A stretch of DNA of 64,000 bases from an uncultured Actinomycetes bacterium (GTDB lineage Bacteria; Actinomycetota; Thermoleophilia; RBG-16-64-13): the NCBI GenBank assembly GCA_963706025.1, contig CAVPLM010000003.1, forward strand, positions 32,001-96,000, written 5' to 3'. Below, piece by piece: positions 14,413-35,870 of the stretch; position 1 is the first letter of the stretch; every line of letters begins with the position of its first letter. The position numbers were made by a program, and so were the translations under genes. Under the pieces are notes generated by a model, which ran no database searches, had not been told where the DNA came from, and saw only the letters and a program-made list of their open reading frames with translations.

Positions 14413-14415
14413 CGA

Positions 14416-20238: not shown

Positions 20239-20352
20239 GCTTCTTCCAGCTTCCTCAAAGATCCACGCCCCCACGCGCCCGTCGTATCGCTACTTGTCCC
20301 TGGCCGACGATATCGTATGATGGCGAAAAAGACCGAGAGGTTTCAGGTGAAC

Positions 20353-21036
20353 ATGGCAAAAGGAACAGGGGCGACAGCGAAGGAGTCCGGAGCCGCTCAC
20401 GCCCGAGAGATCATCGCCCGCTTGAGAGAAGAGTATCCCGACGCCGGTATCGTGCTCGATTACGGCAGTGATTGGGAGTTGCTCGTGGCCGTCATCCTCT
20501 CCGCCCAGTGCACGGACAAGATGGTCAATCAGGTCACAGCCAAGCTCTTTCAGAAGTACCGCACCATCGAGGACTACGCCTCCGCCGAACCGGCTGAATT
20601 CGAGATCGACATCCGGCCCACGGGCTTCTTCCGCAACAAGACGAAGCACATCATCGCCGCGGCGCAGAAGGTCCTGAGCGACTTCCAGGGAGAGGTACCC
20701 GCCAGCATGGCCGAACTCCTGACTCTGCCGGGGGTCGCGCGAAAGACCGCCAACATCGTGCTGGGCAACGCCCACCCGGACGCCTATTCCACTGATCCCG
20801 ACGCGGGCATCGCCGTGGACACGCACGTGAACCGACTCAGCCAGAGGCTCGGCCTGGCGACATCTTCCGACTCCGACAAGATCGAGAGGGAGTTGATGGT
20901 TATCGTCCCCCGAGCCGATTGGTTCCGGCTGACCTACCTGCTGATCGAGCACGGTCGCGCCGTCTGTATGGCCAAGCGCCCCCGCTGCGGGGAGTGCCTG
21001 CTGCAGGACATCTGCCTTTCGGCGTTCAAGGTCTGA
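20353..21036 (+). CDS. nth: Endonuclease III
   Basis: [13 protein letters not shown], Hh[20 protein letters not shown] and FCL motif [17 protein letters not shown]. Confidence 0.95.
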
Positions 21037-21161
21037 CCCGCCGGGCGGTTGACGCTTCCGGTCCTCGCCTATACCATCGCACAGTCGATCTACGGCCCTA
21101 CGTACCGGCCCCAGGGTCGGACGGGGGACAGGTGAGCCGCGCTACGCAAGGGGAACAACGC

Positions 21162-22520
21162 ATGATCAGAGACCGGAAGCACGAGTGCATGAGCCGCAAG
21201 GAGCTCGGGCAGCTGCAGGGAGAGCGCCTGGGCGCCCAGGTCAGACGGGTCTACGAGCGGGTCCCCTTCTACAAGAACCTGTTCGACCGTGAGGAGATCG
21301 TCCCCGAACGCATCCACGGTCTCGACGACCTCCCCCGTCTCCCGTTCACCACGAAGCACGGCCTACGCGACAACTACCCCTTCGGTCTTCTGGCGGTACC
21401 GCCCAAGGAGGTGGTCCGTATCCATGCGTCGTCGGGCACCACCGGGAAGCCGACCACCTGTGGCTACACCCGTGGCGACATCGACATGTGGGCTGAAGTC
21501 ATGGCCCGCTCCCTTGTAGGCGCGAGCACCACCGACGAAGACGTGGTCCAGGTCGCCTACGGCTACGGTCTTTTCACCGGAGGACTGGGGGCTCACTACG
21601 GGGCGGAGTTGATCGGCGCCTCCGTCATCCCCATATCGGGCAGCAACACGCAACGCCAGCTCATGCTCATGCAGGACTACGGCTCCACGGTGATCTGCTG
21701 CACCCCCAGCTTCGTCCTGTATCTCTGGGACGTGGCCCAGCAGCTCGGGCTGGACGTCACCAGTTTCCCGCTCCGGGTGGGAGTGCTCGGAGCCGAACCC
21801 TGGTCGGAAGCCATGCGGCGCGATATCGAGCAGAAATGGAACATCAAGGCCTGCGACATCTACGGGCTCTCCGAGATCATCGGTCCCGGCGTGTCGTGTG
21901 AGTGCATCGAGGCCCAGTCGGGTCTCCACATCAACGACGATCACTTCTTGCCCGAGATCATCGATCCCGAGACCGGGGAGGTCCTACCCGAAGGAGAGTT
22001 GGGCGAACTGGTCTTCACCACTCTGACCAAGGAGGCCATGCCGCTCATCCGCTACCGCACCGGCGATATCACCCGGCTGGATTCCGAACCCTGCATCTGT
22101 GGGCGAACCAGCACGCGCATGCACCGTGTATCGGGGCGCTCGGACGACATGCTGATCATTCGAGGGGTCAACGTCTTTCCCAGCCAGGTGGAATCGGTGC
22201 TGCTGATGTCACCTCAGGTGGAGCCGCACTACCAGTTGGTGGTGAACCGCAAGGGCGCCATGGACACCATGGACGTGCTGGTGGAGATCTCCCCGGCCCT
22301 TTACAGGGAAGTCTCCGAAGCCATCCTCTCGTTGGACGACGTCACGATGTTCACCGAGCACGACGCTCTCCTCGATCTTAAGCAGCAGATCCAGAAGAAC
22401 GTTAAGGACATCATCGGCATCAGCGTGAATGTGGCTTTCAAGGAGCCGGGATCTATCGAGCGCAGTGAGGGCAAGGCTCAGCGGGTGCTCGACCTACGCA
22501 AGGACCAGGGCGACAAGTAG
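21162..22520 (+). CDS. paaK: Phenylacetate--CoA ligase family protein
   Basis: [72 protein letters not shown]. Confidence 0.92.
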
Positions 22521-22653
22521 CACCGGGGCGGCTCGCAAGGACCGCGACCGATCGGTGTCTGGCAGTTCCCGCATCCCCGCCCGGCGACAGCGATGGATAG
22601 CCTGAGCCGGACCGGCCCTGGATATCGCGTATGCTATGCTTGGGTATAGCGAA

Positions 22654-22725
22654 ATGGACACCTCGGACGATCCTCCAAGTACCCGACTCCCCACGGCGCC
22701 CTTCCGCCGGGTGACCTCCCTATGA
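22654..22725 (+). other. 23-aa Pro-rich upstream ORF (MDTSDDPPSTRLPTAPFRRVTSL) whose TGA overlaps the CNNM/CorC gene ATG
   Basis: ATG 22654, TGA 22723-22725 overlapping ATG 22722; TATGCT -10-like hexamers just upstream. Confidence 0.45.
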
Positions 22726-24047
22726 GCACGACCGCCATCGAGATAATCGGCGTCGTCCTTCTGGTGGTCGTCAACGCGTTCTTCGTGATATCCGAGTTCG
22801 CCATCGTCAAGGTGCGCGACACGAGGGTGGCCGAGTTGGCCGCCATGGGCAGCCGGCGGGCGCGGGTGGCCGATCACATCGTCAATCACCTCGACGCCTA
22901 CCTGTCGGCGACTCAGCTGGGAGTCACCGTCGCCAGCCTGGGGCTGGGTTGGCTGGGCGCATCGGCTTTCACAGATATCTTCGACGTGGCCTTGAGTCGT
23001 ACAGCCGCGGCGATCCTCGCCTTCGTCTTTGTGACCTTCGTCACCATCATCTTCGGCGAGTTGGTCCCCAAGTCACTGGCCATACGCAAGGCCGAGCGCT
23101 CCACACTCATCGTCGCCTTGCCCCTACGCTGGTTCTACCTCATCACCCGCCCTTTGACCTGGCTCATGTATATCTCCGCGGCCGGCATCCTCAGAGTCTT
23201 CCGCATCCAGCCCGCGTCGGAACGCGATCTGGCCCATTCCGAGGAAGAGCTACGGATGATCATCGAGGCCAGTCAGGAAGGGGGCCACATCGACGAGGTG
23301 GAGCAGACCCTCATGCGCCGCGCCCTCACTTTCGGTGACCGCGCGGTGGGCGACATCATGGTGCCTCGCACCGAGATGGCCGCCCTACCCACCTCGACCC
23401 TCGTCAGTCAGGCTATCGAGGAGATCGCGGAGACGAATCACACAAGGTACCCGGTCTATGAGGAGGACGTCGACAACATCGTGGGCTACGTCCACGTCAA
23501 GGACCTCTACCGGATGCCGCTCGACGCCACCTTGCGGCGCCTTCTGCGCCCCATCGGCTTCATCGCCGAGACATCGAACATAGAGCTTGCTCTGCAGCGC
23601 TTTCAGAGCACGCGCACGCCGCTCACCATCGTGGTCGACGAGCACGGCGGCACGGCGGGCATCGTCACCATCCAGGACGTGGTGGAGGAGCTGATCGGCG
23701 AGGTTCAGGACGAGTTCGACCTGGAGGCGCCGGAAGTCGAGGACCGCGGGGACGGCAGCTACTCCATCGACGGTGGGGCCCGGATCGACTATCTGGAGAG
23801 CCTTCTGGGACTGGACGTGCCCGAAGAGGGCTTTCCCACCTTGGGTGGCCGGGTCTTCGAGCAGCTGCAGCGACGCCCCCAGGTGGACGACGAGGCTCAG
23901 ATAGGCGAATTCCATGCCCAGGTCCTCGAGGTGGACGGGATGCGCATCTCCCGGGTGCTCCTCAGCCGGCGCGCTGCGGAGGAAGAGGAAGGCGAACTTG
24001 AAGACGCGGAGGGCGCCGAGCCCGGCGGCGAATACTCTGACGACTGA
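22722..24047 (+). CDS. CNNM (DUF21)-CBS-CorC hemolysin-family protein, putative Mg2+/Co2+ efflux
   Basis: NAFFVISEFAIV, YLSATQLGVT, FGELVPK, MVPRTEM, HTRYPV, VVDEHGGTAGIVT, GEVQDEFD, TLGG. Confidence 0.93.
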   Translation: MSTTAIEIIGVVLLVVVNAFFVISEFAIVKVRDTRVAELAAMGSRRARVADHIVNHLDAYLSATQLGVTVASLGLGWLGASAFTDIFDVALSRTAAAILAFVFVTFVTIIFGELVPKSLAIRKAERSTLIVALPLRWFYLITRPLTWLMYISAAGILRVFRIQPASERDLAHSEEELRMIIEASQEGGHIDEVEQTLMRRALTFGDRAVGDIMVPRTEMAALPTSTLVSQAIEEIAETNHTRYPVYEEDVDNIVGYVHVKDLYRMPLDATLRRLLRPIGFIAETSNIELALQRFQSTRTPLTIVVDEHGGTAGIVTIQDVVEELIGEVQDEFDLEAPEVEDRGDGSYSIDGGARIDYLESLLGLDVPEEGFPTLGGRVFEQLQRRPQVDDEAQIGEFHAQVLEVDGMRISRVLLSRRAAEEEEGELEDAEGAEPGGEYSDD

Positions 24048-24152
24048 CCCGTGACCGGCTCGCACCCTGAGTCCGTCGAGATGCCTACCTGATTTCGAGC
24101 CCGAGCTGCTGTTGTGCGCCCCCGATCGCCGCAGCAGGGTATCATTCGCCGC

Positions 24153-27100
24153 ATGAGACCGATCGAGGTACCGTTCGATTCTGACGCCCTTCGGGCGAAC
24201 CTTGCAGGCACCACTCAAGAGGTGGTCATTCCCGACCGCTATCTGCCACTGGTCCAGGCCGTCGACGGCTTGTACGGTGTACGCACGCCCCTGACCGAGA
24301 CCCTGGCCGAGTATTTCCACGCCTTTCGCAACGTCGACCTGCTCATCGACGGCTTTCAGACCATCCTTCTGCGCAATTGGACCTACTTCGAGCGTTCAGA
24401 AGACCGCGCTCGGTGCTTCGGGCTGCTCTCCGAACTGGTGCTCGACCTTCTCGATACCCCACTTACCGAGGGGCAGACGTCGTTGTTGCTGCGCCAGTTG
24501 CTCTCTTGGTGCACCACGGCTCTGCGCGGACCCTTCTCCGACGCTTACGACGACAGCCTGCAGGCCGTAGCCGAATGCCTCTCCCGATCGCTTTCCCGGC
24601 AACCGCTTGCTTTCTTGGAGCGGGACGCCCTGGTGCGTGGTGTTGTCGAGCGAGCCGCGAAACGGCCTGCCGTCGAACTGGTGTTCTCCGAGCTCTACCG
24701 GGACCTCCTGCTTCTGGGGTACCGGAGGCTGAGCGAGCGACTGCCCATACCCCAATGGGCCACTTCGACCGAGGCAGAGCTCGCCGACGCCGAAGCCGTC
24801 GCCGCCAACTTCTCGCTGTTGGCCCCAGAGCGGATCGCCGGACTCATGGCACGAGCGGAGAGTGCGTCGCTCCCCGACCTGCTGTCCCCTGAACTTCCGG
24901 TCTTCTCCGCCATCCTCGACCAGGCCATCGACCAGGTCTTCCGGATCGATGACCTCGAGGATCGCTTCGCAGTCTGCCTCTATTTCCTTAAAGACGACAC
25001 CCTGGGCTACCGTCAAAACGAGGTGATGGTCGACCTGCTGGGAGTGATCAGACAGCTCATGAAGCCCGAGCGGCACATGGACGTCGATCGTATCCTAAGC
25101 CGCCTCACCCGCTTCTTCCGGGCGCGCGACAACCAGTTCCTTCTCATGCGCTTCCAGTGCTACGAAGCCATCGGAGTGGCTATCGGCGAGGCAGGCAACG
25201 TGGCGGCGGCCGACCACGTCATCGAGGACGTGCTCTCCTGGCGGTTCCAGTACCCCGACATAAGGGGCGCCACGGACGACTGGGAGACGATGGTCAACCC
25301 GTTCCACCTGCCCAAGATCCGCTGCTGGATGCACATCGTCGAGTCCAATCCCTCCCTCTACGAACGATTGGCCGCCGCCCTCAACGTGCAGCTGCGCCTG
25401 GGCGGCGTATACATCGCCGACACCGACCTCTTCCAGCGTGATGTCACCCTCTTCCTGAACGCCGATATCCGGCCCATATACTTCGTGGCCAAGCAGTTGC
25501 TCCGAGCGTTCCCCGTGTACTTCAACGACGTGGGCGCCGAAGGCGAGTTGCGGTCCGTGTCTACCGAGATAGACGAGATCTGTGGGCGTCGGGACACGCT
25601 CATGCATTTCATCCGCAAGCAATCCCACGCTGAGTCGTCCAACCGCTTGGTGGCTTTCAGCAGGGCGGTGCTCTCCTATTGGATGACTCTGGACCCCTCC
25701 GGTCTGGAGCCCTACATTTCGGCCAATACCATGGCCGCCGTGCACCGGGAATCGGAATGGGCCGAGGAGCCCCACGCTGTTCTTCTCGGACTTTGGGCGG
25801 CTCTCGAGGATGGGAGACGCCCAGACGGGAACGCGGGGCCGAACCTGGAGTCGTTCCTCGATCGGTTGGTCAGTCTCCCGCCGTCCGCGCTGGAGGAACT
25901 GGTCGGCGGGCTGCCCGGGCCGGAAGACAGCGGCTCGACGGGCCCCCGCCGGGTCCTTCTCATGGTCCGCACCTATCAGCTACTCGCCCAGAAGTACTCG
26001 CTGTCGGCCGACAATATAGGTCCGGCCGTCGCTCACCATCTGCAACTCGACGCAAAGATTCGGCTCAAATTCGCGAGGGCCTTGCGCGCCTGGCAGGCCG
26101 AGCCCAAAGCCTCGGCCCGCGACCATCTGCTCGACGTGGCTCTGACCGTGCTCGAACAGTTGAAAGACATCATCTTGAATCCCTCGCCATCAGTGGCGGT
26201 GGAGAACATCTACCAGAAGCGGCATATCGCCGCCGGCATCCCCTCCATGTACGGCAACTACAGCGAGCCGAAGTTCGATGCTCTGGGCCTTTCCTTCCGG
26301 GTGGAGAACCTGGTGGCCCGCTTGCTTGAGGACCTGGTTACCGAGGGCACCGACGCGTATGTGACCCGCGACTCCCTGCGGCGAATGGCCGTCGCCATAA
26401 GACGGTTCGAACGCGCCTTGGCGGCGGGTGGCGTTGATTCCCGCAACCTGGCCGCCAACCTGCGCCTGCTCGAGTCCAGTTTCAGCAGCCACAATTTCAC
26501 CTTCCATCAGTATCGCAACGTGTTCCAGTTCATCGTCGGCTCGGTCACCGAGTTGTCGCGCACCTCGATACTCAGCCACGACCAAGTGCTGCGCGCGGTA
26601 CTCGAACACGACCCCCGGCAGTGCGAAGCCCGCTGCCTCTCGCTCGACGCGACGGCCGAGGTGGTCCTGCGGGAAGTGCTGGTCACAGCTCTGGGCATGC
26701 AGACCCTGGACCGCTACGTCTCCGCTGCTCTACACCAGATCTCCACCCTTGCCGGGCGCCTTAGCAATCAGGCCTTGACCCGGATGATGAACTACGACCC
26801 CGAACGCCTGGTCTCCCCAATACACGAGGCCAAGCCCAGCACGGACGACCAGATGACCCTGGGCTTCAAGGGACTGGGGCTCAAGCAGATGGCTTCGTAC
26901 AAGCATCGAGTCCCCGAGGGCTTCATCCTCAGCACCGAGCTGTTCGGCGCCTGGCCTGCCATGTCTCACCGGCCCCTTTACGACGACACTCTCGAGCGTA
27001 TCCGCAAAGCGCTGGGCCGTCTGGAGAGAGAGACGGGGCTCCGTCTGGGCGACCCCGCCCGCCTGCTCACGCTCTCGATCCGATCCGGCGCGGCCATTTC

Positions 27101-28340
27101 CCTGCCAGGGCTCATGACCACCTTCGTCGACGTTGGCCTGAACGACAGATTGGCGGAGGCTCTCTCGCGCCGGCCTGGATTCGATTGGGCAGCCTGGGAT
27201 TCGTACCGGCGGTTCCTTCAGTCGTGGGCCATGGCGTCGGGCGTCGACCGGGACTTCTTCGACGGGATCATGAACGAGTTCAAGCTGCGCTACGGCATCG
27301 AACGCAAGCTCGACTTTCTCCCCGAGCACATGCGCGAACTGGCCTTCACGTACAAGGCCCGCGGCCGGGAGCTGGGGGTCAAGTACACCGACGATCCTTT
27401 CCGCCAGGTCGTCGGCTGTATGCGGAAGGTCCTGGCATCCTGGGATTCGCCCGAGGCCAAGCTCTACCGCCGTTACCTCGGGGTGGCCGAGGAGTGGGGC
27501 ACCGCCGTTGTGGTGCAGAGAATGGTCTTCGGGAATCTCAGCCGCGAATCGGGTTCTGGTGTCACGTTCACGCGCAACCCCTTGGAGCCGTATAGCAGCC
27601 AGGTTCGGCTTTTTGGCGACTTCACCGCCCGGAGCCAAGGCGAGGACCTAGTGGCCGGCCTTGTGTTCCCCCTGCCCATCTCCGAAGCGCAGCGCCTCGG
27701 CAGCCCCACCTACCGGGGCATAGAGCATTCTCTGGAGCGGGATTACCCGGAGGTCTACCTGGCACTGCTCGCAATCGCCCGGGACCTGGTGAACACGCGG
27801 GAGTTCGACCCCCAAGAGATCGAGTTCACCTTCGAGTCCGCGTCCGGACAGGATCTTTACGTCCTTCAGAAACGGGCGATGGTGCAACAACAGACGACGG
27901 AGATGCCCTATTTCGACACTTCCTCGCCGCACTTCGGCCCGCCCGCCGCCGTAGGCATGGGGGTGGCCGGTGGCGCCTACTCAGGAAGAGCGGCGATCAA
28001 CGCCCGGCAGATCTCCCGCCTCCTCGCCCACGCCCCTGACGACAACATCCTGCTGCTCAGGCCCGACACCGTGCCCGAGGACATCGCCATGATCGCCCAG
28101 GTCTCCGGCCTGCTCACCGCCAGGGGCGGAGCCACGTCACATGCGGCCGTCACCGCCAAGCGTCTGGGGAAGGTCGCCGTGGTCGATTGCCGAGAGTTGG
28201 ATGTGGTCGAGCACCGAGGGGTCGCGTACCTCGCCGGAACGAAGATCAAGGCCGGCGATTGGCTCTCCATAGACGGCCGTACCGGCAATATCTTCTGGGG
28301 ACGCATCCCTACTCTGGCGCGACCCATCATCTCCCTCTAG
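24153..28340 (+). CDS. Large dikinase-like protein: ~900-aa unknown N-terminal region, PPDK-type ATP-grasp domain and phospho-His swivel domain; no PEP/pyruvate-binding barrel
   Basis: LGFKG, VPEGF, SIRSGAAISLPG, WDSYRRF, GTAVVVQRMVFGN, SGSGVTFTRNP, QGEDLVAG, EIEFT, LQKR, and TARGGATSHAAV; the protein ends just after SIDGRTGNIFWG. Confidence 0.85.
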   Translation: MRPIEVPFDSDALRANLAGTTQEVVIPDRYLPLVQAVDGLYGVRTPLTETLAEYFHAFRNVDLLIDGFQTILLRNWTYFERSEDRARCFGLLSELVLDLLDTPLTEGQTSLLLRQLLSWCTTALRGPFSDAYDDSLQAVAECLSRSLSRQPLAFLERDALVRGVVERAAKRPAVELVFSELYRDLLLLGYRRLSERLPIPQWATSTEAELADAEAVAANFSLLAPERIAGLMARAESASLPDLLSPELPVFSAILDQAIDQVFRIDDLEDRFAVCLYFLKDDTLGYRQNEVMVDLLGVIRQLMKPERHMDVDRILSRLTRFFRARDNQFLLMRFQCYEAIGVAIGEAGNVAAADHVIEDVLSWRFQYPDIRGATDDWETMVNPFHLPKIRCWMHIVESNPSLYERLAAALNVQLRLGGVYIADTDLFQRDVTLFLNADIRPIYFVAKQLLRAFPVYFNDVGAEGELRSVSTEIDEICGRRDTLMHFIRKQSHAESSNRLVAFSRAVLSYWMTLDPSGLEPYISANTMAAVHRESEWAEEPHAVLLGLWAALEDGRRPDGNAGPNLESFLDRLVSLPPSALEELVGGLPGPEDSGSTGPRRVLLMVRTYQLLAQKYSLSADNIGPAVAHHLQLDAKIRLKFARALRAWQAEPKASARDHLLDVALTVLEQLKDIILNPSPSVAVENIYQKRHIAAGIPSMYGNYSEPKFDALGLSFRVENLVARLLEDLVTEGTDAYVTRDSLRRMAVAIRRFERALAAGGVDSRNLAANLRLLESSFSSHNFTFHQYRNVFQFIVGSVTELSRTSILSHDQVLRAVLEHDPRQCEARCLSLDATAEVVLREVLVTALGMQTLDRYVSAALHQISTLAGRLSNQALTRMMNYDPERLVSPIHEAKPSTDDQMTLGFKGLGLKQMASYKHRVPEGFILSTELFGAWPAMSHRPLYDDTLERIRKALGRLERETGLRLGDPARLLTLSIRSGAAISLPGLMTTFVDVGLNDRLAEALSRRPGFDWAAWDSYRRFLQSWAMASGVDRDFFDGIMNEFKLRYGIERKLDFLPEHMRELAFTYKARGRELGVKYTDDPFRQVVGCMRKVLASWDSPEAKLYRRYLGVAEEWGTAVVVQRMVFGNLSRESGSGVTFTRNPLEPYSSQVRLFGDFTARSQGEDLVAGLVFPLPISEAQRLGSPTYRGIEHSLERDYPEVYLALLAIARDLVNTREFDPQEIEFTFESASGQDLYVLQKRAMVQQQTTEMPYFDTSSPHFGPPAAVGMGVAGGAYSGRAAINARQISRLLAHAPDDNILLLRPDTVPEDIAMIAQVSGLLTARGGATSHAAVTAKRLGKVAVVDCRELDVVEHRGVAYLAGTKIKAGDWLSIDGRTGNIFWGRIPTLARPIISL

Positions 28341-28527
28341 AGCCGCCCGCCTGGGCCGGCCATGAGGTCACCTAACGACGCGACCGTACTCCGATGTCCC
28401 TGCGCGCGCTGGAATCCGGGCGCTTCTGGAAGTACCCTGGAAAGAAGAGACACGCGTCCGCCGCCGAACCGCAACGGCACCGGCGCTCGGACGGTAATCG
28501 GAATCTAGGAGATGGGAGGCCTGGCCA

Positions 28528-29763
28528 ATGAGCGCGCCGCGCAAGCTGGGGATCAACGGGCTGGGACGGATCGGGAAGCTAACCCTGTGGTACCACCTGG
28601 GTCACGATGACTTCGACTGCTTCGTGATCAACGTGGGCCGCCAGGTGGGGACTTCGCTTCAGTCCGTCGTCGAGTACGTCAGCAAGGACAGCACTTACGG
28701 GCCGCTGCACCGTTATCTGTACGGTCATCAGGGCAAGAGGGACATCGAGGTGGTCGATGAGGCGGCAGGACTTGTCAGGGCGCACGGCAAGGAGATCATC
28801 CTCCTGCGAGAAGCCCGCAATCCCAAAGATATCCCCTGGCGTGACCACGGAGTGAGCCTGGTGGTGGAATGCACCGGCACATTCCGGGATCCCCACGCCG
28901 ACGCCGAGGACCCGAAAGGGGCGCTCCGGGGCCATCTGGCCGCCGGAGCGCGAACGGTCGTGCAGAGCTCCCCGTTCAAGAGCAAGACCAAGGGAGTGCC
29001 GCTGCCTGAAGACACCGCCATCCTGATCAACGGCATCAACCACTCCGAGTATGATCCGGGCAAGCACAAGATCGTCTCAGCCGCCTCCTGCACCACCACG
29101 GCTCTTGCTCACATGATGCGGCCTCTGCTGGCCCGGGACCTCACCCGGCATATGATCACCGCGGGGATGAGCACCGTCCACGCGGTCACCAACAGCCAGC
29201 CGGTGCTCGACGCGGTCCCGGGTTCGGGCGCTACCGACCTCCGCAAGACCCGCGCCGCCATGAACAACATCGTTCTGACGTCCACCAACGCCGCAAAGGC
29301 GCTCGAGCAGGTCATGCCCGAGGTAGCCCGCATCGGCTTCATGGCCGATTCGGTGCGCATCCCTACTGCCAGCGTGAGCCTGATCATCCTGAATGTCACC
29401 TTCCAGAGCGAGAGCCTGCCCGACGGGACGGTGACGGTGGACCGCGAAGCCATCAACGCCATCTACCGGGAAGCTTCCGAAGGCGAGGCCCGAGGTCTAC
29501 TCAAGTACAGCGAGGAGCAGAACGTCTCCGCGGACATGTTGGGTGAAGACGCGGCAGTGGTGATCGAAGCGGTGGAGACCCACACCCGCACCGGTTTCGT
29601 CGATCTAAGGATACCGGACTGCCAACCCGGGGGTGAGACCGCCTATCGCGATCACCGCATGCCGCTCACTCACGTGAAGGTCTTCGGCTGGTACGACAAC
29701 GAGATGGGCAGCTACACATATCGGCTGGGCGAGCTCACCAGCCACGTCGCGGGGAGTATGTAA
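28528..29763 (+). CDS. Divergent GAPDH-family (type I-like) dehydrogenase
   Basis: GINGLGRIG, VVECTG, SAASCTTTAL (catalytic Cys), TVHAVT (His), STNAAKA, RIPT, WYDNE. Confidence 0.85.
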   Translation: MSAPRKLGINGLGRIGKLTLWYHLGHDDFDCFVINVGRQVGTSLQSVVEYVSKDSTYGPLHRYLYGHQGKRDIEVVDEAAGLVRAHGKEIILLREARNPKDIPWRDHGVSLVVECTGTFRDPHADAEDPKGALRGHLAAGARTVVQSSPFKSKTKGVPLPEDTAILINGINHSEYDPGKHKIVSAASCTTTALAHMMRPLLARDLTRHMITAGMSTVHAVTNSQPVLDAVPGSGATDLRKTRAAMNNIVLTSTNAAKALEQVMPEVARIGFMADSVRIPTASVSLIILNVTFQSESLPDGTVTVDREAINAIYREASEGEARGLLKYSEEQNVSADMLGEDAAVVIEAVETHTRTGFVDLRIPDCQPGGETAYRDHRMPLTHVKVFGWYDNEMGSYTYRLGELTSHVAGSM

Positions 29764-29792
29764 GGCAGTTCCCTCACGGTTATCCTTCGCGA

Positions 29793-30378
29793 CTACTCCC
29801 CCACGGTCAGGATCGTGGCTTCGATCCGGGGCCGGGCCCGCGGCCCGGCCCCGGACTCAGATCCCTGTGTTCGAAAGATCTCGAGCCGAGCCATGGTCCG
29901 GGGGCGGCCGAACCGCCGTGGCCCGGCCGAGCCGGGGTTGAGATACAGCACGTGGTCACGCTCCTCGACCGAGGCCAGATGGCTGTGTCCGAATATGACC
30001 GCCGCGAGGTCTCCGCCGGCCTTTGGCCCGCCTCCGCCTGGTTCGGTCCGCAGCCCCCGCGCAATGTGGCCGACCAGGATACGCGCACCCCCTATGGTCA
30101 CCTCGGCCCGCGCAGGGAGGCTTCCGGCCCAGGCAGAGCAGATCGCAGTTACCCCTCACCGCCGTGACCGGAGCCATCGCCTGCAGAGCAGCCAGCACCT
30201 GGGGAGAGCCCACATCACCCGCGTGGATGATATGGTCGACTCCCTGGAGCAGCTTTAGGACCTGGGGATACAGCTGCCCATGGGTGTCGGAAAGGACGCC
30301 CACCACGATCGAGCCCCTTGCCGTTGAATGGTCCAAGCCTTGATTCCCCTCTGCGGTCGTTGGCGCGCAGGCTTTCAA
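29793..30378 (-). CDS. YfcE/MJ0936-type metallophosphoesterase (+1 insertion near 30138; start uncertain)
   Basis: SDTHG, HAGD and RGNCD in ORF 29956-30378; FGHSH and LNPGS in ORF 29793-30101. Confidence 0.85.
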
Positions 30379-30389
30379 AGGTCATCCTT

Positions 30390-31475
30390 CTAGAGGAGAT
30401 CCACGTACAGGTCCTCGGCCAGATCGTTCCCCGGTGGGAGGTGGCCCTGTTCGTGAGCATATCGGGCGAGCAACTCGCTCTCGCGCTGCGTGTAGAGGGG
30501 GTCGAGTTCCACTTTGAAGAAGGCGACCGTGACGCAGGCCGGCTCCGCTAACGCCTCAGCCAGACCCTGCCGCAGGTTCGCTACTCCTCCGATGCGGAGG
30601 ATCTGTCCTTCCGGGTCCATGAGTTGGAAGACGCCGGCCTCGCAGGGGACCGCCGTCATTATCGCAAGATCGACCGCCTGCCAAGCCTCGGGAGGTAGTA
30701 CGGGCGTACAAAGACCGCTCTTCGCGCGGCGATCGGCCAGCCAGCGCGCCCCGTCTTCCCCAGGCGCGGTGAGCGCACCCGCGGGGCAGACCATGACGCA
30801 GTGCCCGCAGAACGTGCAGCCCGAAACGCGCAGGGTGTCCCGCTTCGGACGCGCCACGAAGCCTGGCGGGGGATCCACCGACCGGGCGACCATCTCCAGC
30901 GCCCGACCGGCCTGCGGTGAAGTGTCGCACACCATCACGCACCGGCCGCAGCCGATGCACAATCCCGGTTCGCGCCGGATGCGCCCTTCCCGAACTGCAT
31001 CGCGCGGCACGGTAACCGAACCCCGAGCCAGGCTTCCTTCCGAGTCGAGATGGGCTACCATCTTGCCCAGTTCGCAGCGACCGAACTGGTCGCAACACCG
31101 TGCGTCCGCAGGATGGCCGTACGTGCACTGGTCCCGAGTGCAGCCGTCGCGGTCAGGGCAGGCAAGGCAGACGTGCGGATGCCGGGCCAGGATGCGCGCC
31201 AACCGCTCCAGCCGCGCCGCGGCCAGCCCCGGGTCTTGGGTGGTCACCTCCAGATCGGCGGCAGCCCTCGTGACGCAGGCGAGGGCCACGGACCCATCCT
31301 GAAGCCGCACAACACACAGCCCGCACTCGACTCCGCCCACCCCCGCCCGCGCGCAGCAAGCCAGGCCAGGATAGAAGCAGAGACGAGGAACATAGCGCCC
31401 GGCCGCGTCACAGGCTTCGAGGAGGGTCGTCCCGTCCGCGACGGTGACGGCCGCCCCGTCGACGCGCATCTGCAT
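30390..31475 (-). CDS. NuoG/hydrogenase N-terminal-like FeS protein ([2Fe-2S], His-ligated [4Fe-4S], 2x[4Fe-4S]) with BzdV-like C-terminal domain
   Basis: VPRLC...CGLCVV...ACVT; HPHVCLACP; CIGCGRCVMVC and CTFCGHCVMVCP; C-terminal GVFQL...YTQRESELL...PPGND. BzdV similarity is from recall. Confidence 0.75.
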   Translation of the reverse strand: MQMRVDGAAVTVADGTTLLEACDAAGRYVPRLCFYPGLACCARAGVGGVECGLCVVRLQDGSVALACVTRAAADLEVTTQDPGLAAARLERLARILARHPHVCLACPDRDGCTRDQCTYGHPADARCCDQFGRCELGKMVAHLDSEGSLARGSVTVPRDAVREGRIRREPGLCIGCGRCVMVCDTSPQAGRALEMVARSVDPPPGFVARPKRDTLRVSGCTFCGHCVMVCPAGALTAPGEDGARWLADRRAKSGLCTPVLPPEAWQAVDLAIMTAVPCEAGVFQLMDPEGQILRIGGVANLRQGLAEALAEPACVTVAFFKVELDPLYTQRESELLARYAHEQGHLPPGNDLAEDLYVDLL

Positions 31476-31519
31476 CTCTACGCTCGAGGCGTTCACCAGC
31501 TGCTGCCAGGCTCCGGCCG

Positions 31520-31813
31520 CTACCAGCTGTGGCGCAGCGCCCCGGCCGGGCAGGCGTCGGTGCAGGGAAGCTTGTGCTCCGAACCGCCGCTGCCGTTCTG
31601 ACCCTTGCACATGGAGCAAACCTCGCGGAGACGCTTCCGAGTCTTCTCCACCACCACAGCCACCAGGTCGTCGTAGTCGTCCGGCTCGACCGCGTAGACG
31701 CTCTGAGGGCAGGCGGTGACACACGGGTGGTGGGCGCAACGGGCGCAGAGACCGCCGTCGATGGTGATGTAGTAGAAGCCGGAGCCGTCCTCATAACCGT
31801 AGTTGGCGATCAT
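31520..31813 (-). CDS. bzdM: Benzoyl-CoA reductase-associated ferredoxin
   Basis: MIANYGYEDGSG-YITID, CxxC...CVTACP, CSMC...CTDACP...HSW; start overlaps the bzdQ stop (ATGA). Confidence 0.75.
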   Translation of the reverse strand: MIANYGYEDGSGFYYITIDGGLCARCAHHPCVTACPQSVYAVEPDDYDDLVAVVVEKTRKRLREVCSMCKGQNGSGGSEHKLPCTDACPAGALRHSW

Positions 31814-32703
31814 GCCGCGGCCGCCTTCTCCTTCTCCGCCTTCCTATGGAGAGAGTGAGCGAAGAGAGCCGCGCCCAGGGCGCCGGCGATCTGCGGGTCG
31901 AGCACCGAGTCCACCGGCAGCTTCACGGCCTCCACTCCGATCAGCCGCTCGATGCGCCGGGTCACCCCGATGTTCTTGCCGATGCCGCCCGTGATGAAGA
32001 ACTCGCGCTCCACCTCCATGCGCTCGATCAGTCCGGCCACCCGCTGGGCCATAGCCCCGCAGTAGGCGGCGAGCACTCGTTCGACGCTCCAGCCCGCTCG
32101 CAGCAGCGATGTGGCCTCCGACTTCGCGAACACGGTGCACACGTTGCTCACCGGAGGCGGTTCCTCGTCGATCTCGAATGAGCGCCGGCCGATATCCTCG
32201 ATCGGCACCGAAAGCGCGTCGGCGATGACTTCCATGCCCCGACCCGTCCCGGCCGCGCACTTGTCGTTCATGATGAAGTTGAGCACCTTGCCCCGCTCGT
32301 CGCAGCGGATGACCTTGCAGTCTTGGCCGCCCATGTCGAGGATGGTGCGCACGCTGGGCCCGCCCATGTAGTTGGCCCCCCGGGCGTGACAGGCGATCTC
32401 GGTGATGGTGCGGTCGGCGAAGGGTACGTTCACCCGGCCGTAGCCGGTGCCGACAGCGTAGCTCACGTCATCCAAGGTGAGGCCCAGGGACTCGCTCGCC
32501 CCTTTGAAGGCGCGCAGGGCGCTGTCAGGGCTCGAAGAGCCGGTGCGGGTGGAATGGAAGGAGAGCAGCTTGCCATCGGCGAGCAGCACGGCCTGAGAGC
32601 TCACCGACCCGACATCGATCCCCACCATGACGGCGGAGGCCATCCTCCAGTCGAGGTCAGGGGCCTGCCAGGTTCGTTCACTCCATCTCCAGAAATCTTG
32701 CAT
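31810..32703 (-). CDS. bzdQ: Benzoyl-CoA reductase bzd-type ATPase subunit Q (ASKHA activator family)
   Basis: N-terminal FWRWSE extension, GIDVGSVSSQAV, GTGYGRVNVPFA, TEIACHARGA, DMGGQDCK, MNDKCAAGTGRG, CTVFAKSE, TGGIGKN. Confidence 0.85.
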   Translation of the reverse strand: MQDFWRWSERTWQAPDLDWRMASAVMVGIDVGSVSSQAVLLADGKLLSFHSTRTGSSSPDSALRAFKGASESLGLTLDDVSYAVGTGYGRVNVPFADRTITEIACHARGANYMGGPSVRTILDMGGQDCKVIRCDERGKVLNFIMNDKCAAGTGRGMEVIADALSVPIEDIGRRSFEIDEEPPPVSNVCTVFAKSEATSLLRAGWSVERVLAAYCGAMAQRVAGLIERMEVEREFFITGGIGKNIGVTRRIERLIGVEAVKLPVDSVLDPQIAGALGAALFAHSLHRKAEKEKAAAA

Positions 32704-32877
32704 CTGTCCCCTCGCTCCCAGAGTCCTTCCTCAGCTCGGGCGCCGACCGGCCGGCCCAAGCGGCACCGGTGGATGATACCCGGCCGAAACGAGAGCGGGA
32801 AGAGGAGACCGCTCGTATCTTGGCGGCAACATCCCGTCCCTCACGAGTGGAATAGGGCTAAGGTACACGCGCAAGAT

Positions 32878-32910
32878 GGTAGGGTAGTAATGATACATTA
32901 CTTCCTTACC
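32878..32910 (+). promoter_or_regulatory. Palindromic operator upstream of the toxin-antitoxin operon
   Basis: AGTAATG-ATA-CATTACT (32886-32902), extended imperfectly by GGTAGGGT/TCCTTACC, directly before the AGGAG RBS. Confidence 0.7.
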
Positions 32911-32920
32911 AGGAGTTGTC

Positions 32921-33157
32921 ATGGAGACGCGAGCAGTGAGCAAGCTGACCAGCAAGTATCAGACCACGATCCCGGCGTGCATCCGGGATGCTCTGGGGCT
33001 ATCCAAGGGGGACTCGATGGTCTTCGAGACCGCAGACAATGGGACTGTGACCATGCGCAAGGCTGTCCCGCTGGACCTGGAGTTCGCCGGGGCGCTCGAG
33101 CCGCTTCTGTCAGAATGGGATTCCGACGAGGATGAGGAAGCCTACCGTGGCCTATGA
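32921..33157 (+). CDS. AbrB/MazE/SpoVT-family antitoxin
   Basis: SKLTSKYQTTIPACIRDALGLSKGD; acidic tail LSEWDSDEDEEAYRGL. Confidence 0.92.
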   Translation: METRAVSKLTSKYQTTIPACIRDALGLSKGDSMVFETADNGTVTMRKAVPLDLEFAGALEPLLSEWDSDEDEEAYRGL

Positions 33158-33518
33158 TCAGTGGGCCGTCGTCGTGGTGCCTTTTCCGTTCACCGACCGC
33201 AACACCCGGCGTCGTCGACCGGCGGTGGTGGTATCGCGTCCCTCCGAACTCGGCGCCCTCGTCAACCACAGTGTCCTTGCCATGATCACAAGCGCCGGCC
33301 ATCGCCGCTGGCCTCTCGACGTACCTATCACCGATCTCGCCACGGCCAGCATACCCGCACCGTCGGTAGTGCGCATGAAGCTGTTCACCCTGGATGACCG
33401 CCTCGTGCAACGACAGGCCGGGATGTTGGCCGCCATCGACGCCGCCGCGGTCGCTGAAGCGCTGGGCAGGTTGCTCTCGATTCGCTCGCAGGGTCGACTA
33501 GACCAGGCCGACGGCTAG
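33147..33518 (+). CDS. PemK/MazF-family toxin
   Basis: VVVVPFPFTD...RRRPAVVVS, AMITS, PSVVRMKLFTLD; GTG start overlaps the antitoxin end. Confidence 0.92.
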   Translation: MAYDQWAVVVVPFPFTDRNTRRRRPAVVVSRPSELGALVNHSVLAMITSAGHRRWPLDVPITDLATASIPAPSVVRMKLFTLDDRLVQRQAGMLAAIDAAAVAEALGRLLSIRSQGRLDQADG

Positions 33519-33525
33519 AGATTTC

Positions 33526-33556
33526 CCAGCCGGGGTGTGAGGCATCCCCGGCCTGG
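33526..33556. terminator. Hairpin between the convergent toxin and bzdP genes
   Basis: CCA-GCCGGGG...CCCCGGC-CTGG stem. Confidence 0.5.
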
Positions 33557-34339
33557 CTACCCCGGCGGCGCCGCCTCCCAGGCTATGAGGGCCGCGCCAT
33601 GCGCGCCTAGGTATTCGGCATCCGCCAGGACGTAGATATCCACCCCGCCCAAAGCCTCGGACAAGGATTTCACGAACCCGATGTTCAAGGCGGCCCCGCC
33701 GCCCAGCACGACCGGGTCCACGACGCCGATGCGCCGCACCATCGCCGACACCCGGCCGGCCATGGCGTCGTGCACGGCCCGGGCGATGTCGGCGGGAGGC
33801 GTGTTGGCGTGGATGAGGCTCACCACCTCAGACTCGGCGAACACGGTGCACTGAGCGTTCATGGGGATGGTCTCGGTGGAATCGAGAGAGGCTTTGGCGA
33901 AATCGTCCAGCGTCATGTCCAGCGCCCGGCTCATGGCCTCCACAAAGGCACCCGCCCCAGCGGCGCATTTCTCGTTGATGGCGAAGTCGACCACCTTGCC
34001 GCCATCGCCCAGACGGATGGCGCGGGCTTCGTCCGCGCCCACGTCGATGACAGTGCGGGCCCCCGGGTAGAGGTCGAAGGCGCCGCGGCCGTCCGCCGCG
34101 ACTTCGGTGGGCTGCTGACTCGCAGAAGAAAGGGCCTTCCGCCCGGCGCCGGTAGCCGCGACCACGTCGATGTCTTCGCGCCGGATGCCCGCTGCCGCGG
34201 CCGCTTGGGCCAGTCCCCGCTCCGCGGACTCCTCGTGGTCAAAACCGGAGGCCACGGCCGACCGAGCTACCAGCTCGCCATCTTTGAGGAGCACGACGTG
34301 CACGTTCTTCGCGCCCAAGTCGATACCCGCTACGATCAT
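33557..34339 (-). CDS. bzdP: Benzoyl-CoA reductase bzd-type ATPase subunit P / CoA-substrate activase
   Basis: AGIDLGAKN, ATGAGRK, IDVGADEAR, INEKCAAGAGAFVEAMSRAL, MNAQCTVFAESEVVSLIH; same strand and context as bzdQ/bzdM. Confidence 0.78.
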   Translation of the reverse strand: MIVAGIDLGAKNVHVVLLKDGELVARSAVASGFDHEESAERGLAQAAAAAGIRREDIDVVAATGAGRKALSSASQQPTEVAADGRGAFDLYPGARTVIDVGADEARAIRLGDGGKVVDFAINEKCAAGAGAFVEAMSRALDMTLDDFAKASLDSTETIPMNAQCTVFAESEVVSLIHANTPPADIARAVHDAMAGRVSAMVRRIGVVDPVVLGGGAALNIGFVKSLSEALGGVDIYVLADAEYLGAHGAALIAWEAAPPG

Positions 34340-34974
34340 GCCCGGCTAATCCGCCATTCTGCCGGGTCGAGCGCAAGCCCACAAGCGAGAGCCTTCACAT
34401 TCATTTCCTCGGTGCCCGCCGGTACCACGCCCATCACCGCTTTGCGTAGCGACTCGACCGAGACTATGCCCGTGATTCCCGCCACCGCGCCCAACGTAAG
34501 GATGTTCATGGTCTGTTGACGCCCTGTCTGCTCCACCGCCAGGCGGGTGAACGGGATCCCGAAGCTGACACCCCCGAACGCGGGCGGCTCGACGACATAC
34601 TCGAGGTCGTACATGAGAACGCCATTGGGGCGTAGGTACCGAGCGTAGCCCCTCGCCGAGTCTTGAGACAGGGCCACGAGCAGATCGACCTGGTCCAACT
34701 CGGGGTAGTCTATCGGCTGGTCCGAGATGAGGATGTCACTGCGGCTGTAGCCGCCACGCGCCTCCGGTCCGTACGACTGCGTCTGCACCACGTAGCGATG
34801 ATCTCGCGTGGCCGCCATCGCTAGGATGACACCCATGAGGATCACACCCTGGCCGCCGCTCCCCGCAAAACGCACCTCCAGGAAGTCGCGCGTCGCCAGC
34901 AGACCCGTGGCCACCTGCGCCTGATCGGGGCTGGGGTCCGCGCCGTCGGGTCCGTCCGGAGCTGCGGCTCTCAC
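34336..34974 (-). CDS. korC: 2-oxoacid:ferredoxin oxidoreductase gamma subunit
   Basis: RFAGSGGQGVIL, QSYGPEARGG. Confidence 0.9.
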   Translation of the reverse strand: MRAAAPDGPDGADPSPDQAQVATGLLATRDFLEVRFAGSGGQGVILMGVILAMAATRDHRYVVQTQSYGPEARGGYSRSDILISDQPIDYPELDQVDLLVALSQDSARGYARYLRPNGVLMYDLEYVVEPPAFGGVSFGIPFTRLAVEQTGRQQTMNILTLGAVAGITGIVSVESLRKAVMGVVPAGTEEMNVKALACGLALDPAEWRISRA

Positions 34975-35870
34975 TAGTCCTCCTCCTGGCCGGCCTGCTC
35001 GGCGGCCTCTGCTGCGGCCCCTTGCTCCGCCTCCGCGCGAGCCCGCTCTGCGGCCTCCGCGGTGGCGCGGGCCGCCATCTCCGCATAGGTCCGCTGGAAC
35101 TCAGGCGCGTCGACATCGCGGTGAAGTATCCCCGTTACGATCTTGTCCGCCAGTTCTTCGGCGGACATCGTCGCTGCTTTGCTTTTCGACACCGATCTGG
35201 CTTTCTCTTCATCCAGCATCGCCACCGCGCTCGCGGGCTTGTTCCGCTTGCCGTATTCCGTAGGGCACGGGACGACCGCTTCGATGAACGCGAAACCCGG
35301 GTGCTGGATCCCCTGCTTGATGAGCTTCTCCAAGGGCCTGATCTGGGCCGCAGTGCCCCGGGCCACGAAGCTTGCTCCCGCCGCCTCAGCCAACCGGCAC
35401 AGGTCGAAGGGCGGCTCTGCCTGGCCGTAGGGGGCCGTGGTGGCCCGATCACCCAGTTCCATCGTGGGGGAGAGCTGACCGCCGGTCATGCCGTAGATCT
35501 GGTTGTTGAACAAGATGCAGGTTATGTCGATGTTGCGCCGGCAGGCGTGGATCAAGTGGTTGCCTCCGATCGCGGCGCCGTCGCCGTCGCCGGTAACCAC
35601 GATCACGGTGAAATCGGGCCTGGCCATCTTTATTCCGGTAGCAAAAGCCAGCGCGCGGCCGTGGATCGCATGCACGCTACCGAGATCGACATAACCGGCC
35701 GCCCTGCTGGAGCAGCCGATGCCACCCACCACCACTGTCTCCTCGCGCTTCAACCCCAGATCGACCGCAGCCCGCAGGAAGGCCCCCGTCACTATGCCGA
35801 TCCCACAACCGGCGCACCAGATATGTGGGAGCCGCTCACTGTGCAGGAACTGCTCGATCTCGAGGGTCAT
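34974..35870 (-). CDS. korB: 2-oxoacid:ferredoxin oxidoreductase beta subunit (TPP-binding)
   Basis: WCAGCG, GIGCS, GDGDGAAIGGNH, NNQIYGMTGGQ, PCPT. Confidence 0.93.
   Translation of the reverse strand: MTLEIEQFLHSERLPHIWCAGCGIGIVTGAFLRAAVDLGLKREETVVVGGIGCSSRAAGYVDLGSVHAIHGRALAFATGIKMARPDFTVIVVTGDGDGAAIGGNHLIHACRRNIDITCILFNNQIYGMTGGQLSPTMELGDRATTAPYGQAEPPFDLCRLAEAAGASFVARGTAAQIRPLEKLIKQGIQHPGFAFIEAVVPCPTEYGKRNKPASAVAMLDEEKARSVSKSKAATMSAEELADKIVTGILHRDVDAPEFQRTYAEMAARATAEAAERARAEAEQGAAAEAAEQAGQEED

Follow-up and report, generated by a model that had tools for sequence, protein, structure and literature searches.

A Barrel-Less Dikinase and Its Glyceraldehyde-3-Phosphate Dehydrogenase Partner in Diverse Bacteria: A Candidate Reaction or Point of Control in Sugar Synthesis or Lower Glycolysis

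Introduction

To our knowledge, the map of lower glycolysis and gluconeogenesis is regarded as complete, and phosphoglycerate kinase (PGK) counts as the only enzyme interconverting 3-phosphoglycerate and 1,3-bisphosphoglycerate. A mobile phospho-His phosphorylates a carboxylate in succinyl-CoA synthetase, and several kinase/reductase pairs (ProB/ProA, ArgB/ArgC, and aspartokinase/Asd) work via acyl phosphates. Among dikinases with a phospho-His, rifampin phosphotransferase has reportedly been retargeted through its acceptor module. VadK (Rv1127c) of Mycobacterium tuberculosis is described as a derivative of pyruvate phosphate dikinase (PPDK) without the barrel domain, which autophosphorylates on His422 and shows interaction with methylcitrate-cycle enzymes (PMC13400623), and HpeHI shows that dikinase modules can sit on separate proteins (PMC12167813). 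Here, we analyze a pair of genes in a 64,000-nucleotide stretch of DNA from an uncultured bacterium of the class Thermoleophilia (Actinomycetota), hereafter the window (positions 32001-96000 of contig 3, CAVPLM010000003.1, of the 3.66-Mb assembly GCA_963706025.1, which is 92% complete and rated 7.3% contaminated). The first gene encodes a barrel-less dikinase of 1395 residues, and the second encodes a divergent paralogue of glyceraldehyde-3-phosphate dehydrogenase (GAPDH), which we call GapX.

The pairing of the two genes is real and extends across bacterial phyla. We class the pair as a dikinase with a new acceptor or docking domain plus an obligate dehydrogenase partner. This suggests that sugar synthesis or lower glycolysis has a reaction or point of control that is so far undescribed. 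Our preferred reading, adopted tentatively, is that the two proteins would form a PGK-independent dikinase/NADP(H)-GAPDH couple at the 3-phosphoglycerate/1,3-bisphosphoglycerate step. Full-text literature searches, in a coverage that leaves out subscription journals and supplements, turned up no article on this family and none on a phosphoglycerate dikinase; PMC2700814 deals with the ordinary PPDK and GapA/GapB of Geobacter.

The features of the pair that are used below are the following (~, approximate limits).

24153..28340, + strand: barrel-less dikinase gene (ATG at 24153, TAG at 28338-28340, 1395 aa)
24153..26828, + strand: dikinase N region, residues 1-892, predicted all-alpha (AlphaFold2 model; no Pfam or PDB sequence match)
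24222..25442, + strand: putative alpha-solenoid (helical repeat) part of the N region, residues ~24-430 (VIA-align rows, model-based)
25233..25682, + strand: conserved block 1, residues 361-510 (conservation profile of a 43-sequence alignment)
26133..26312, + strand: conserved block 2, residues 661-720, which holds a predicted hairpin at 683-704 (conservation profile, alignment, and model)
26841..27881, + strand: PPDK-type ATP-grasp nucleotide-binding domain, residues ~897-1243 (TIGR01828, PF01326, 5jvn, VIA-align)
28047..28286, + strand: phospho-His swivel (PEP-utilizers mobile) domain, residues ~1299-1378 (PF00391, 5jvn alignment, VIA-align)
28341..28527, + strand: intergenic spacer of 187 nt with a purine-rich ribosome-binding site ahead of the ATG at 28528
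28528..29763, + strand: GapX, GAPDH paralogue of 411 aa (Gp_dh_N, Gp_dh_C)
28630-28641, + strand: N35-V36-G37-R38 of GapX, where ordinary GAPDH has N-D (alignment)
29089-29091, + strand: catalytic Cys188 of GapX (alignment)
29179-29181, + strand: catalytic His218 of GapX (alignment)

Linkage and Co-Occurrence of the Two Genes

Two sets of loci were collected. The first came from a scan of one genome per species and comprises 76 loci from the best 80 of 133 matches, all of them in Thermoleophilia/Gaiellales-type Actinomycetota at 61-91% identity. The second came from a scan of metagenomes with a core alignment, in which the best 80 of at least 567 loci were divided into 25 close and 55 distant ones (35-44% core identity). 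Adjacency was counted after tblastn of both window proteins on all loci, and a locus was considered judgeable if it had at least 1.4 kb on each of its two sides.

Genome loci (76): GapX adjacent in 66 (33 downstream on the same strand, 33 upstream and divergent); 58 of 63 judgeable loci
Close metagenome loci (25): GapX adjacent in 17; 11 of 12 judgeable loci
Distant metagenome loci (55): GapX adjacent in 36, all downstream on the same strand; 30 of 35 judgeable loci

At the distant loci, the adjacent gene was 47-58% identical to GapX, versus about 30% for an ordinary gap. In addition, an ordinary gap was located within 2.2 kb in 30 of the 76 genome loci, 9 of the 25 close loci, and 21 of the 55 distant loci. 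Clustering of neighboring open reading frames combined with Pfam revealed the gene order lptA-rpoN-hpf-ptsN-rapZ-EIIA(Man)-(GNAT)-dikinase-gapX-gap-pgk-tpi-secG in one distant clade.

Two observations concern the upstream side of distant metagenome loci. In 15 loci (in the range L119-L157), the gene immediately upstream of the dikinase encodes a GNAT acetyltransferase, and the rpoN-hpf-ptsN-rapZ-EIIA(Man) cluster of the nitrogen phosphotransferase system precedes the dikinase in about 11-12 loci, a nearness to another phospho-His relay which may reflect clade synteny only.

Co-occurrence was analyzed in 301 genomes sampled from the class, using the N-region profile at E <= 1e-20 and GapX at E <= 1e-90; the latter threshold leaves out ordinary gap, which scores near 1e-40. 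The N region was found in 110 genomes and GapX in 106, and comparison of the two lists gave 105 genomes with both, five with the dikinase only, one with GapX only (G016), and 190 with neither. By family, the dikinase and GapX were present in 48 and 45 of 55 genomes (f1), 50 and 49 of 55 (f3), and 11 and 11 of 56 (f2), and in the nine remaining families of the class (134 genomes), neither gene was detected. These counts are not independent because of kinship, and no statistic is attached to them. The linkage that the original prediction needed in other genomes is thus present within the class and, at the distant loci, in other phyla. The pairwise identities of the dikinase and GapX were also correlated (r = 0.96, 210 pairs from 21 loci), which shared ancestry alone would give as well. 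An H+-pyrophosphatase profile matched 280 of the 301 genomes regardless of the dikinase and does not discriminate. One genome (G094) has two dikinase-GapX pairs with identical scores on contigs C9 and C12, probably an assembly duplicate.

It is conceivable that the linkage reflects shared regulation or history only, and that the dikinase acts on an unrelated target, such as a polymer or cell component bound by its putative solenoid. Such an explanation would suit the 11 judgeable loci without an adjacent GapX and one clade that keeps its upstream neighbors (L127, L135, and L149 retain rapZ-GNAT-dikinase, with GapX absent downstream), as well as the variable gene order in genome loci, where same-strand downstream and divergent upstream arrangements are equally frequent (33 each). 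We consider it the least probable of the readings discussed here: the adjacency persists across phyla and in two arrangements, the genome-wide co-occurrence is near-perfect (105 genomes with both genes versus six with a single one), and GapX is a GAPDH clade that is found with the dikinase.

The Dikinase and Its PPDK-Like Half

A single open reading frame on the + strand covers 24114-28340 and amounts to 1408 aa when counted from a GTG. The ATG at 24153, which gives 1395 aa, is the likely start, because a 100%-identical database protein has 1395 aa and the starts of orthologues coincide with it. Pfam positions are given in the 1408-aa numbering, and all other residue numbers in the 1395-aa numbering.

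Pfam recognized only two domains, PPDK_N (PF01326; 958-1186, E 2e-19) and the mobile domain of phosphoenolpyruvate (PEP)-utilizing enzymes (PF00391; 1312-1391, E 6e-17), and the scan found no PEP-utilizers_C barrel (PF02896) in the 1395-aa protein. The last 503 residues align with residues 18-518 (of about 875) of the plant PPDK in PDB entry 5jvn at about 30% identity (E 2e-72), and this stretch includes the phospho-His motif G-G-x-T-S-H-A-A. In the window protein, this motif reads G-G-A-T-S-H-A-A and contains the predicted phospho-His, His1330 (codon 28140-28142); its S-H-A is kept in all 43 aligned dikinase sequences from several phyla. The protein ends about 50 residues past this motif, at the point where the PPDK linker to the PEP/pyruvate barrel starts. 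The uninterrupted frame with a PPDK-type last third that stops before the barrel, as originally predicted, is therefore borne out by the reading frame, Pfam, and the 5jvn alignment.

Structural comparison gave a similar picture. The predicted structure of residues 330-1395 (predicted local distance difference test, pLDDT, 87.9; predicted template modeling score, pTM, 0.79) could be superposed on PPDK of Clostridium symbiosum (1kbl) with a root-mean-square deviation of 3.0 Å over 545 columns, versus 14 Å on maize PPDK (1vbg). In VIA-align, the modeled ATP-grasp domain had Z 31.6 to PPDK 1vbg, 23.3 to rifampin phosphotransferase 5hv1, and 17.2 to HpeI 9goj, and the swivel domain had Z 15.1 to 2fm4; the values of 8.5-9.4 to entries of succinyl-CoA synthetase, citryl-CoA synthetase, and ATP-citrate lyase indicate likeness at the level of the fold only. 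Taken by sequence, it is well supported that the C-terminal half would work like the first half of PPDK.

With curated models, the dikinase covers only positions 12-336 of 865 of the PPDK model TIGR01828 (320.5 bits, cut-off 843.45). It matches NF004531, the model of truncated, VadK-type PPDK, at E 1e-75 over positions 22-299 of 534 with 255 bits (cut-off 456). By sequence, it clearly belongs to the wider dikinase superfamily, yet falls below the membership cut-offs of PPDK and of VadK. As had been suspected from the start, the name pyruvate phosphate dikinase is judged wrong for the 1395-aa protein, because the barrel is lacking and the scores lie below both PPDK cut-offs.

A stand-alone barrel gene that completes the dikinase was considered and rejected: in this 92%-complete genome, the only PEP-utilizers_C match lies inside a full-length ordinary PPDK frame on contig 10. 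Four further PPDK_N frames were detected, on contig 3 (326425-327312, 593 aa), contig 11 (12136-13137, 442 aa), contig 30 (2119-3136, 416-532 aa), and contig 5 (755271-756374, 1034 aa). None of them has the N region, whose profile matches the host genome once. The genome possesses an entire set of dikinase-like genes that lack the barrel or diverge in some other way.

GapX, a Separate Clade of GAPDH

GapX matches both GAPDH domains in Pfam (PF00044, E 4.5e-16; PF02800, E 1e-24). Its score on TIGR01534 is 305.5 bits (cut-off 367.2), and it is also below the cut-offs of all eight other GAPDH/Epd models of NCBIfam listed, including G3PDH_Arsen and Epd. By sequence, it thus fails the curated equivalog thresholds, yet clearly belongs to the wider superfamily, and the atypical same-strand GAPDH that had been noted next to the dikinase is confirmed as such.

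Residues were compared between 112 GapX proteins and 57 neighboring canonical gaps, using the numbering of Bacillus stearothermophilus GAPDH taken from the alignment. Cys149 and His176 are the catalytic residues of GAPDH, and Thr179 and Arg231 are ligands of the C3 phosphate; the counterparts of all four were present in 112/112 GapX and are invariant in the canonical gaps as well. In contrast, Asp32 was present in 57/57 canonical gaps and in 0/112 GapX, which have Val, Thr, Ile, or Leu instead, and a Gly-Arg insertion, invariant in 112/112, follows directly after this position. Loss of Asp32 marks the NADP(H)-using, gluconeogenic GAPDHs of the GapB type. The closest PDB sequence matches of GapX were the B. 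stearothermophilus GAPDHs 1dbv/3dbv, which we take to be mutants engineered for NADP specificity. Other changes include S-C-T-T-T in 112/112 GapX versus S-C-T-T-N in 57/57 canonical gaps, Tyr178 to Val/Ala, NDQ to NSQ, and replacement of the Pro of I-I-P-T by Leu or Ile in 107/112 GapX. Nine clade-specific insertions of 3-11 residues each explain the extra length of the protein. Judging from these residues, the most likely role of GapX is that of an active dehydrogenase of the phosphorylating type, which accepts NADP(H) and acts on a phosphorylated three-carbon or similar acyl substrate.

In a quick maximum-likelihood tree with 71 GAPDH rows, which came from every distant locus and from one in five of the close loci after removal of rows below 320 or above 480 aa, a long branch with an SH-aLRT support of 100 on both sides separated 47 GapX from 24 canonical sequences; one canonical row (L126) is on a long branch and its placement is uncertain. 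By this tree, GapX is a separate GAPDH clade that is found with the dikinase.

The same residues bear on the identity of the substrate. The pair might be a dikinase and reductase for a different acid, in which case the N domain would bind another phosphorylated or anionic carboxylate, or some other acceptor, and the product of GapX would not be glyceraldehyde 3-phosphate. Changes at substrate and phosphate sites (S-C-T-T-T, Arg195 to Lys, Tyr178 to Val/Ala, NDQ to NSQ) are in line with this, as is the position of GapX below every GAPDH/Epd cut-off, and retargeting of dikinases by a change of the acceptor module has a precedent in HpeHI (PMC12167813). However, the residues that hold the C3 phosphate (the Thr179 and Arg231 counterparts) are invariant in GapX, and the recurrent neighbors are gap, pgk, and tpi rather than genes of another pathway. 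A different acid thus appears unlikely to us.

The N-Terminal Helical Region

The first ~890 residues of the dikinase matched no Pfam family, and a scan of 43 N regions at E values up to 1 yielded only scattered weak helical families, the commonest in 6 of the 43. Searches for PDB sequence relatives with the single sequence, a core profile, and a 43-sequence profile gave matches at chance level (best E 0.024), and in a protein atlas, which offered no stored model either, neither the N region nor a core fragment of 340 aa had a usable look-alike. The region of about 900 residues that the original prediction could not recognize has therefore remained without a Pfam or PDB sequence relative.

The N region itself has a large family. 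In a full HMMER scan of 1.84 billion cluster representatives (50% identity), E <= 1e-3 was reached by 447 representatives and E <= 1e-30 by 208. Many of these have a length of 1350-1540 aa and share 26-36% identity across the whole N region. Source names, taken from ten representatives and ten fragments, include Bacteroidales/Bacteroidota, Candidatus Delongbacteria, Myxococcota, Desulfobacterales, and Syntrophales, and the genome loci add the Actinomycetota. Current databases name these relatives PPDK, "PEP/pyruvate-binding domain-containing protein", or hypothetical. On the evidence of these sequences, the N region is widespread and old.

The AlphaFold2 model built with the 43-sequence alignment (mean pLDDT 86.7, pTM 0.79) contains 48 helices and a single beta-hairpin (residues 683-704, window 26199-26264). 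Residues 24-430 aligned with helical repeats in VIA-align against 48,161 chains at Z 8-13, which is the ordinary range for helical proteins; the best row (Z 13.1) was a designed helical repeat, followed by HEAT/ARM-like proteins. Residues 735-875 resembled a generic four-helix bundle (Z 8-10). Foldseek against the PDB returned only large alpha-solenoids (FANCI, importins) at template modeling scores of 0.10-0.17. Generic helical repeats and bundles are thus all that the fold searches revealed; residues 430-892 had no search of their own, and no claim of a new fold is made for that part. A permuted PEP-binding or TIM barrel in this region, the case that the original prediction had named as its own refutation, was rejected, given that the confident model is all-alpha.

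Conservation within the N region is uneven. The alignment of 43 sequences has 55 invariant columns, including 3 His, 11 Arg/Lys, and 10 Asp/Glu, mostly in two blocks, and its two main groups are only 24-33% identical. Invariant residues are H385, R390, D423, T424, D425, D430, R467, D474, R479, D481, R488, K489, H492, and E494 in block 1, and E684, K689, R690, H691, S698, Y700, G701, Y703, and E705 in block 2. The hairpin tip (residues 688-699), modeled at pLDDT below 50, carries the most conserved motif of the family, K689-R690-H691 ... G-I-P-S-M-Y-G. By its alignment, the N region is strongly constrained and is more than a linker. As modeled, it looks like a helical scaffold with two conserved blocks, unlike known small-molecule-binding folds, so that a protein as acceptor or partner is no less open than a carboxylate acceptor.

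These features bring in the main alternative, namely that the dikinase is a VadK-like regulatory phospho-His kinase or scaffold. His1330 would then be autophosphorylated, and the N domain would bind GapX, an ordinary GAPDH, or another protein, so that the dikinase phosphorylates its partner or tunes GAPDH flux by ATP, AMP, and pyrophosphate (PPi). VadK provides the precedent of a barrel-less PPDK derivative that autophosphorylates on His and contacts the enzymes of the pathway it tunes (PMC13400623). The present dikinase matches the VadK-type model at the E value of 1e-75 given above, its N region resembles, in the model, an alpha-solenoid, typically protein-binding, with the most conserved motif on a flexible hairpin tip, and the nine insertions of GapX could be docking surfaces; besides, PGK is present, hence there is no metabolic gap to fill. 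On the other hand, two short blocks so dense in invariant His, Asp, Glu, Arg, and Lys resemble an active site more than they do an interface, the match to NF004531, with 255 bits, falls far short of the cut-off (456), and a regulator would not obviously need a dedicated GAPDH paralogue with a changed cofactor pocket that is kept in 105 of 110 genomes. We regard this alternative as serious, if on balance doubtful.

A Proposed Phosphoglycerate Dikinase/GAPDH Couple

In the preferred reading, the dikinase and GapX would be one functional unit at the 3-phosphoglycerate/1,3-bisphosphoglycerate/glyceraldehyde-3-phosphate step. By homology, ATP, probably together with phosphate (Pi), would be held in the ATP-grasp domain, His1330 would take up the beta-phosphate, and AMP and PPi would be released. 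The swivel domain would then bring the phosphate to a second site on the helical N domain, which would replace the lost pyruvate barrel and which the two invariant, charge-rich blocks (361-510 and 661-720) may form. There, the carboxylate of 3-phosphoglycerate would be phosphorylated to 1,3-bisphosphoglycerate, and GapX, with its NADP(H)-type pocket, would reduce this to glyceraldehyde 3-phosphate. GapX may, in addition, dock on the helical domain, which would allow direct hand-over of the labile acyl phosphate. The overall reaction would be:

3-phosphoglycerate + ATP + Pi + NADPH -> glyceraldehyde 3-phosphate + AMP + PPi + NADP+ + Pi

The hydrolysis energies are about -49 kJ/mol for 1,3-bisphosphoglycerate and about -46 kJ/mol for ATP to AMP and PPi. 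From these values, the reaction of 1,3-bisphosphoglycerate, AMP, and PPi to 3-phosphoglycerate, ATP, and Pi should be close to equilibrium, at about -4 kJ/mol, so that either direction would be possible: hydrolysis of PPi could pull the PGK-independent route, and the reverse may make ATP from AMP and PPi. We prefer this couple because of the fixed and catalytically intact GAPDH partner, the glycolytic neighbors, the charge-rich blocks, and the precedents of phospho-His transfer to a carboxylate and of kinase/reductase pairs mentioned above.

Several points weigh against it. The modeled N region appears to consist of an alpha-solenoid and helical bundles, folds that usually bind proteins, and no pocket like that of a small-molecule kinase was recognized in it by the fold searches. 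Presumably, 1kbl represents the nucleotide-facing and 1vbg the barrel-facing state of the PPDK swivel domain; the model of residues 330-1395 would accordingly show this domain solely in the nucleotide-facing (loading) state. In the phosphate site of GapX, Arg195 is Lys in 108/112 and Gly209 is Asn in 77/112, and both changes could equally mean a different substrate. The partner is missing at some places: no adjacent GapX was found at L049, L065, L068, L079, and L087; L109; and L135, L149, L162, L166, and L169, although at L049 and L068 it lies 3-7 kb from the dikinase, and the dikinase occurs without detected GapX in five of the 301 genomes (G022, G203, G253, G266, and G298; completeness 57-96%). 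Finally, PGK is present in the host genome and beside the pair in relatives, and the proposed route is therefore redundant and costlier in ATP. The "PGK-independent" step of the original prediction hence does not hold in the sense of a PGK-less organism, as the host has pgk and the pair of distant relatives is directly upstream of gap-pgk-tpi; in the sense of a step that would bypass PGK, it is part of the couple preferred here.

A variant of the couple, which we think improbable, is that GapX would serve as the acceptor module in trans. The N domain would dock a GapX oligomer, the phospho-His would reach into or next to the GAPDH active site, and 1,3-bisphosphoglycerate would never be released. 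If this were true, a PPi-coupled dikinase-GAPDH machine would tie the GAPDH step to the interconversion of ATP with AMP and PPi and bypass PGK; in the glycolytic direction, energy-limited anaerobes would gain ATP equivalents from PPi at a second step, as with PPDK at pyruvate.

The pair represents a two-gene unit that is large, strongly conserved, and as yet unstudied, and in which a phospho-His dikinase is joined to a GAPDH of its own. If the unit is catalytic, as in the preferred couple, central carbon metabolism would gain a new reaction and the dikinase superfamily a new acceptor domain, and the ATP/PPi bookkeeping in models of many sediment and digester anaerobes would change. If it is regulatory, the idea behind VadK, a PPDK turned into a pathway-tuning kinase, would extend to glycolysis in many phyla. 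Either way, the present database names mislead and inflate PPDK counts in metagenome-based metabolic reconstructions.

Genomic Context of the Pair

Upstream of the pair are genes for a CNNM/CorC transporter, an AMP-binding ligase, and endonuclease III, and neither pgk nor tpi adjoins the pair in the window, in agreement with what had been noted for it. No terminator-like site was found in the 187 nt that separate the two genes, and Rfam found nothing in window positions 20000-32000. Short contigs (about 150-270 nt, 92-100% alike) fall on both genes and the spacer; their sources are two metatranscriptome runs belonging to a single study and a further run that is only guessed to be RNA. They give no strand, level, or single transcript, DNA carry-over is possible, and they are at most a weak hint of transcription of the locus.

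In the host genome, an ordinary gap-pgk pair is located on contig 5 and a second gap/pgk on contig 3. The dikinase-GapX pair is an addition to the standard enzymes and not a replacement. In the second gap-pgk (contig 3, 562425-564232), the PGK match falls into two frames, one of 334 aa (model positions 1-187) and one of 262 aa (178-379); a frameshift, an assembly error, or contamination could explain this.

Downstream, on the opposite strand, the pair is followed by Fe-S, BcrAD/BadFG, and 2-oxoacid:ferredoxin oxidoreductase genes:

30390-31739, - strand: 2Fe-2S/4Fe-4S protein
31810-32703 and 33557-34339, - strand: two BcrAD/BadFG-type ATPases
34336-37112, - strand: three 2-oxoacid:ferredoxin oxidoreductase subunits
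37131-37796, - strand: TetR regulator

This run (30390-37796) looks like an activase-dependent reductase/dehydratase cluster with its own electron supply, and its BcrAD gene also follows the dikinase at locus L065, where GapX is missing. Elsewhere in the window, frames of 746 aa (15769-18009, + strand) and 377 aa (13534-14667, + strand) have no Pfam match and are either real orphan genes or chance frames of a window with 65% G+C. An SLH-domain GDSL lipase/esterase (17769-19448, - strand) and a PQQ-like beta-propeller (12135-13898, - strand) suggest cell-envelope-anchored enzymes in the lineage.

Comparison with Known Systems

PPDK (EC 2.7.9.1; TIGR01828; 1kbl, 1dik, 5jvn, 1vbg) has an ATP-grasp domain followed by a phospho-His swivel domain in the same order and with the same T-S-H motif. 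Unlike PPDK, the dikinase has no PEP/pyruvate TIM barrel and carries about 890 extra, predicted all-alpha residues at its N-terminus, and the host has an ordinary PPDK elsewhere. VadK and NF004531 are likewise derived from PPDK and have lost the barrel, keeping only the ATP-binding and His domains. However, VadK has about 490 aa, no N-terminal helical domain, and no GAPDH partner, and it belongs to the methylcitrate cycle, whereas the dikinase has 890 further residues.

Succinyl-CoA synthetase and ATP-citrate lyase, together with ProB/ProA, ArgB/ArgC, and aspartokinase/Asd, offer the chemical parallels of an ATP-grasp domain, transfer from phospho-His to a carboxylate, and reduction of an acyl phosphate by a GAPDH-like or related dehydrogenase. 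In contrast, the succinyl-CoA synthetase/ATP-citrate lyase group has no sequence relation to the N domain of the dikinase, and its ATP-grasp is alike at the fold level only. Similar to the GapB-type, ArsJ-associated, and Epd GAPDHs, GapX has the type I GAPDH fold with catalytic Cys and His, lacks Asp32, and coexists with an ordinary gap; it differs from these special GAPDHs as a separate long-branch clade with nine insertions that is tied to a dikinase and not to pgk or arsJ.

In rifampin phosphotransferase and HpeHI, as is proposed for the dikinase, ATP-grasp and swivel His pass phosphate on to an acceptor site that is separate and specific to the family. The acceptor domains of these two systems are small alpha/beta modules located between or after other domains, whereas the candidate acceptor here is an 890-aa N-terminal helical domain without a relative, and a dehydrogenase is its fixed partner.

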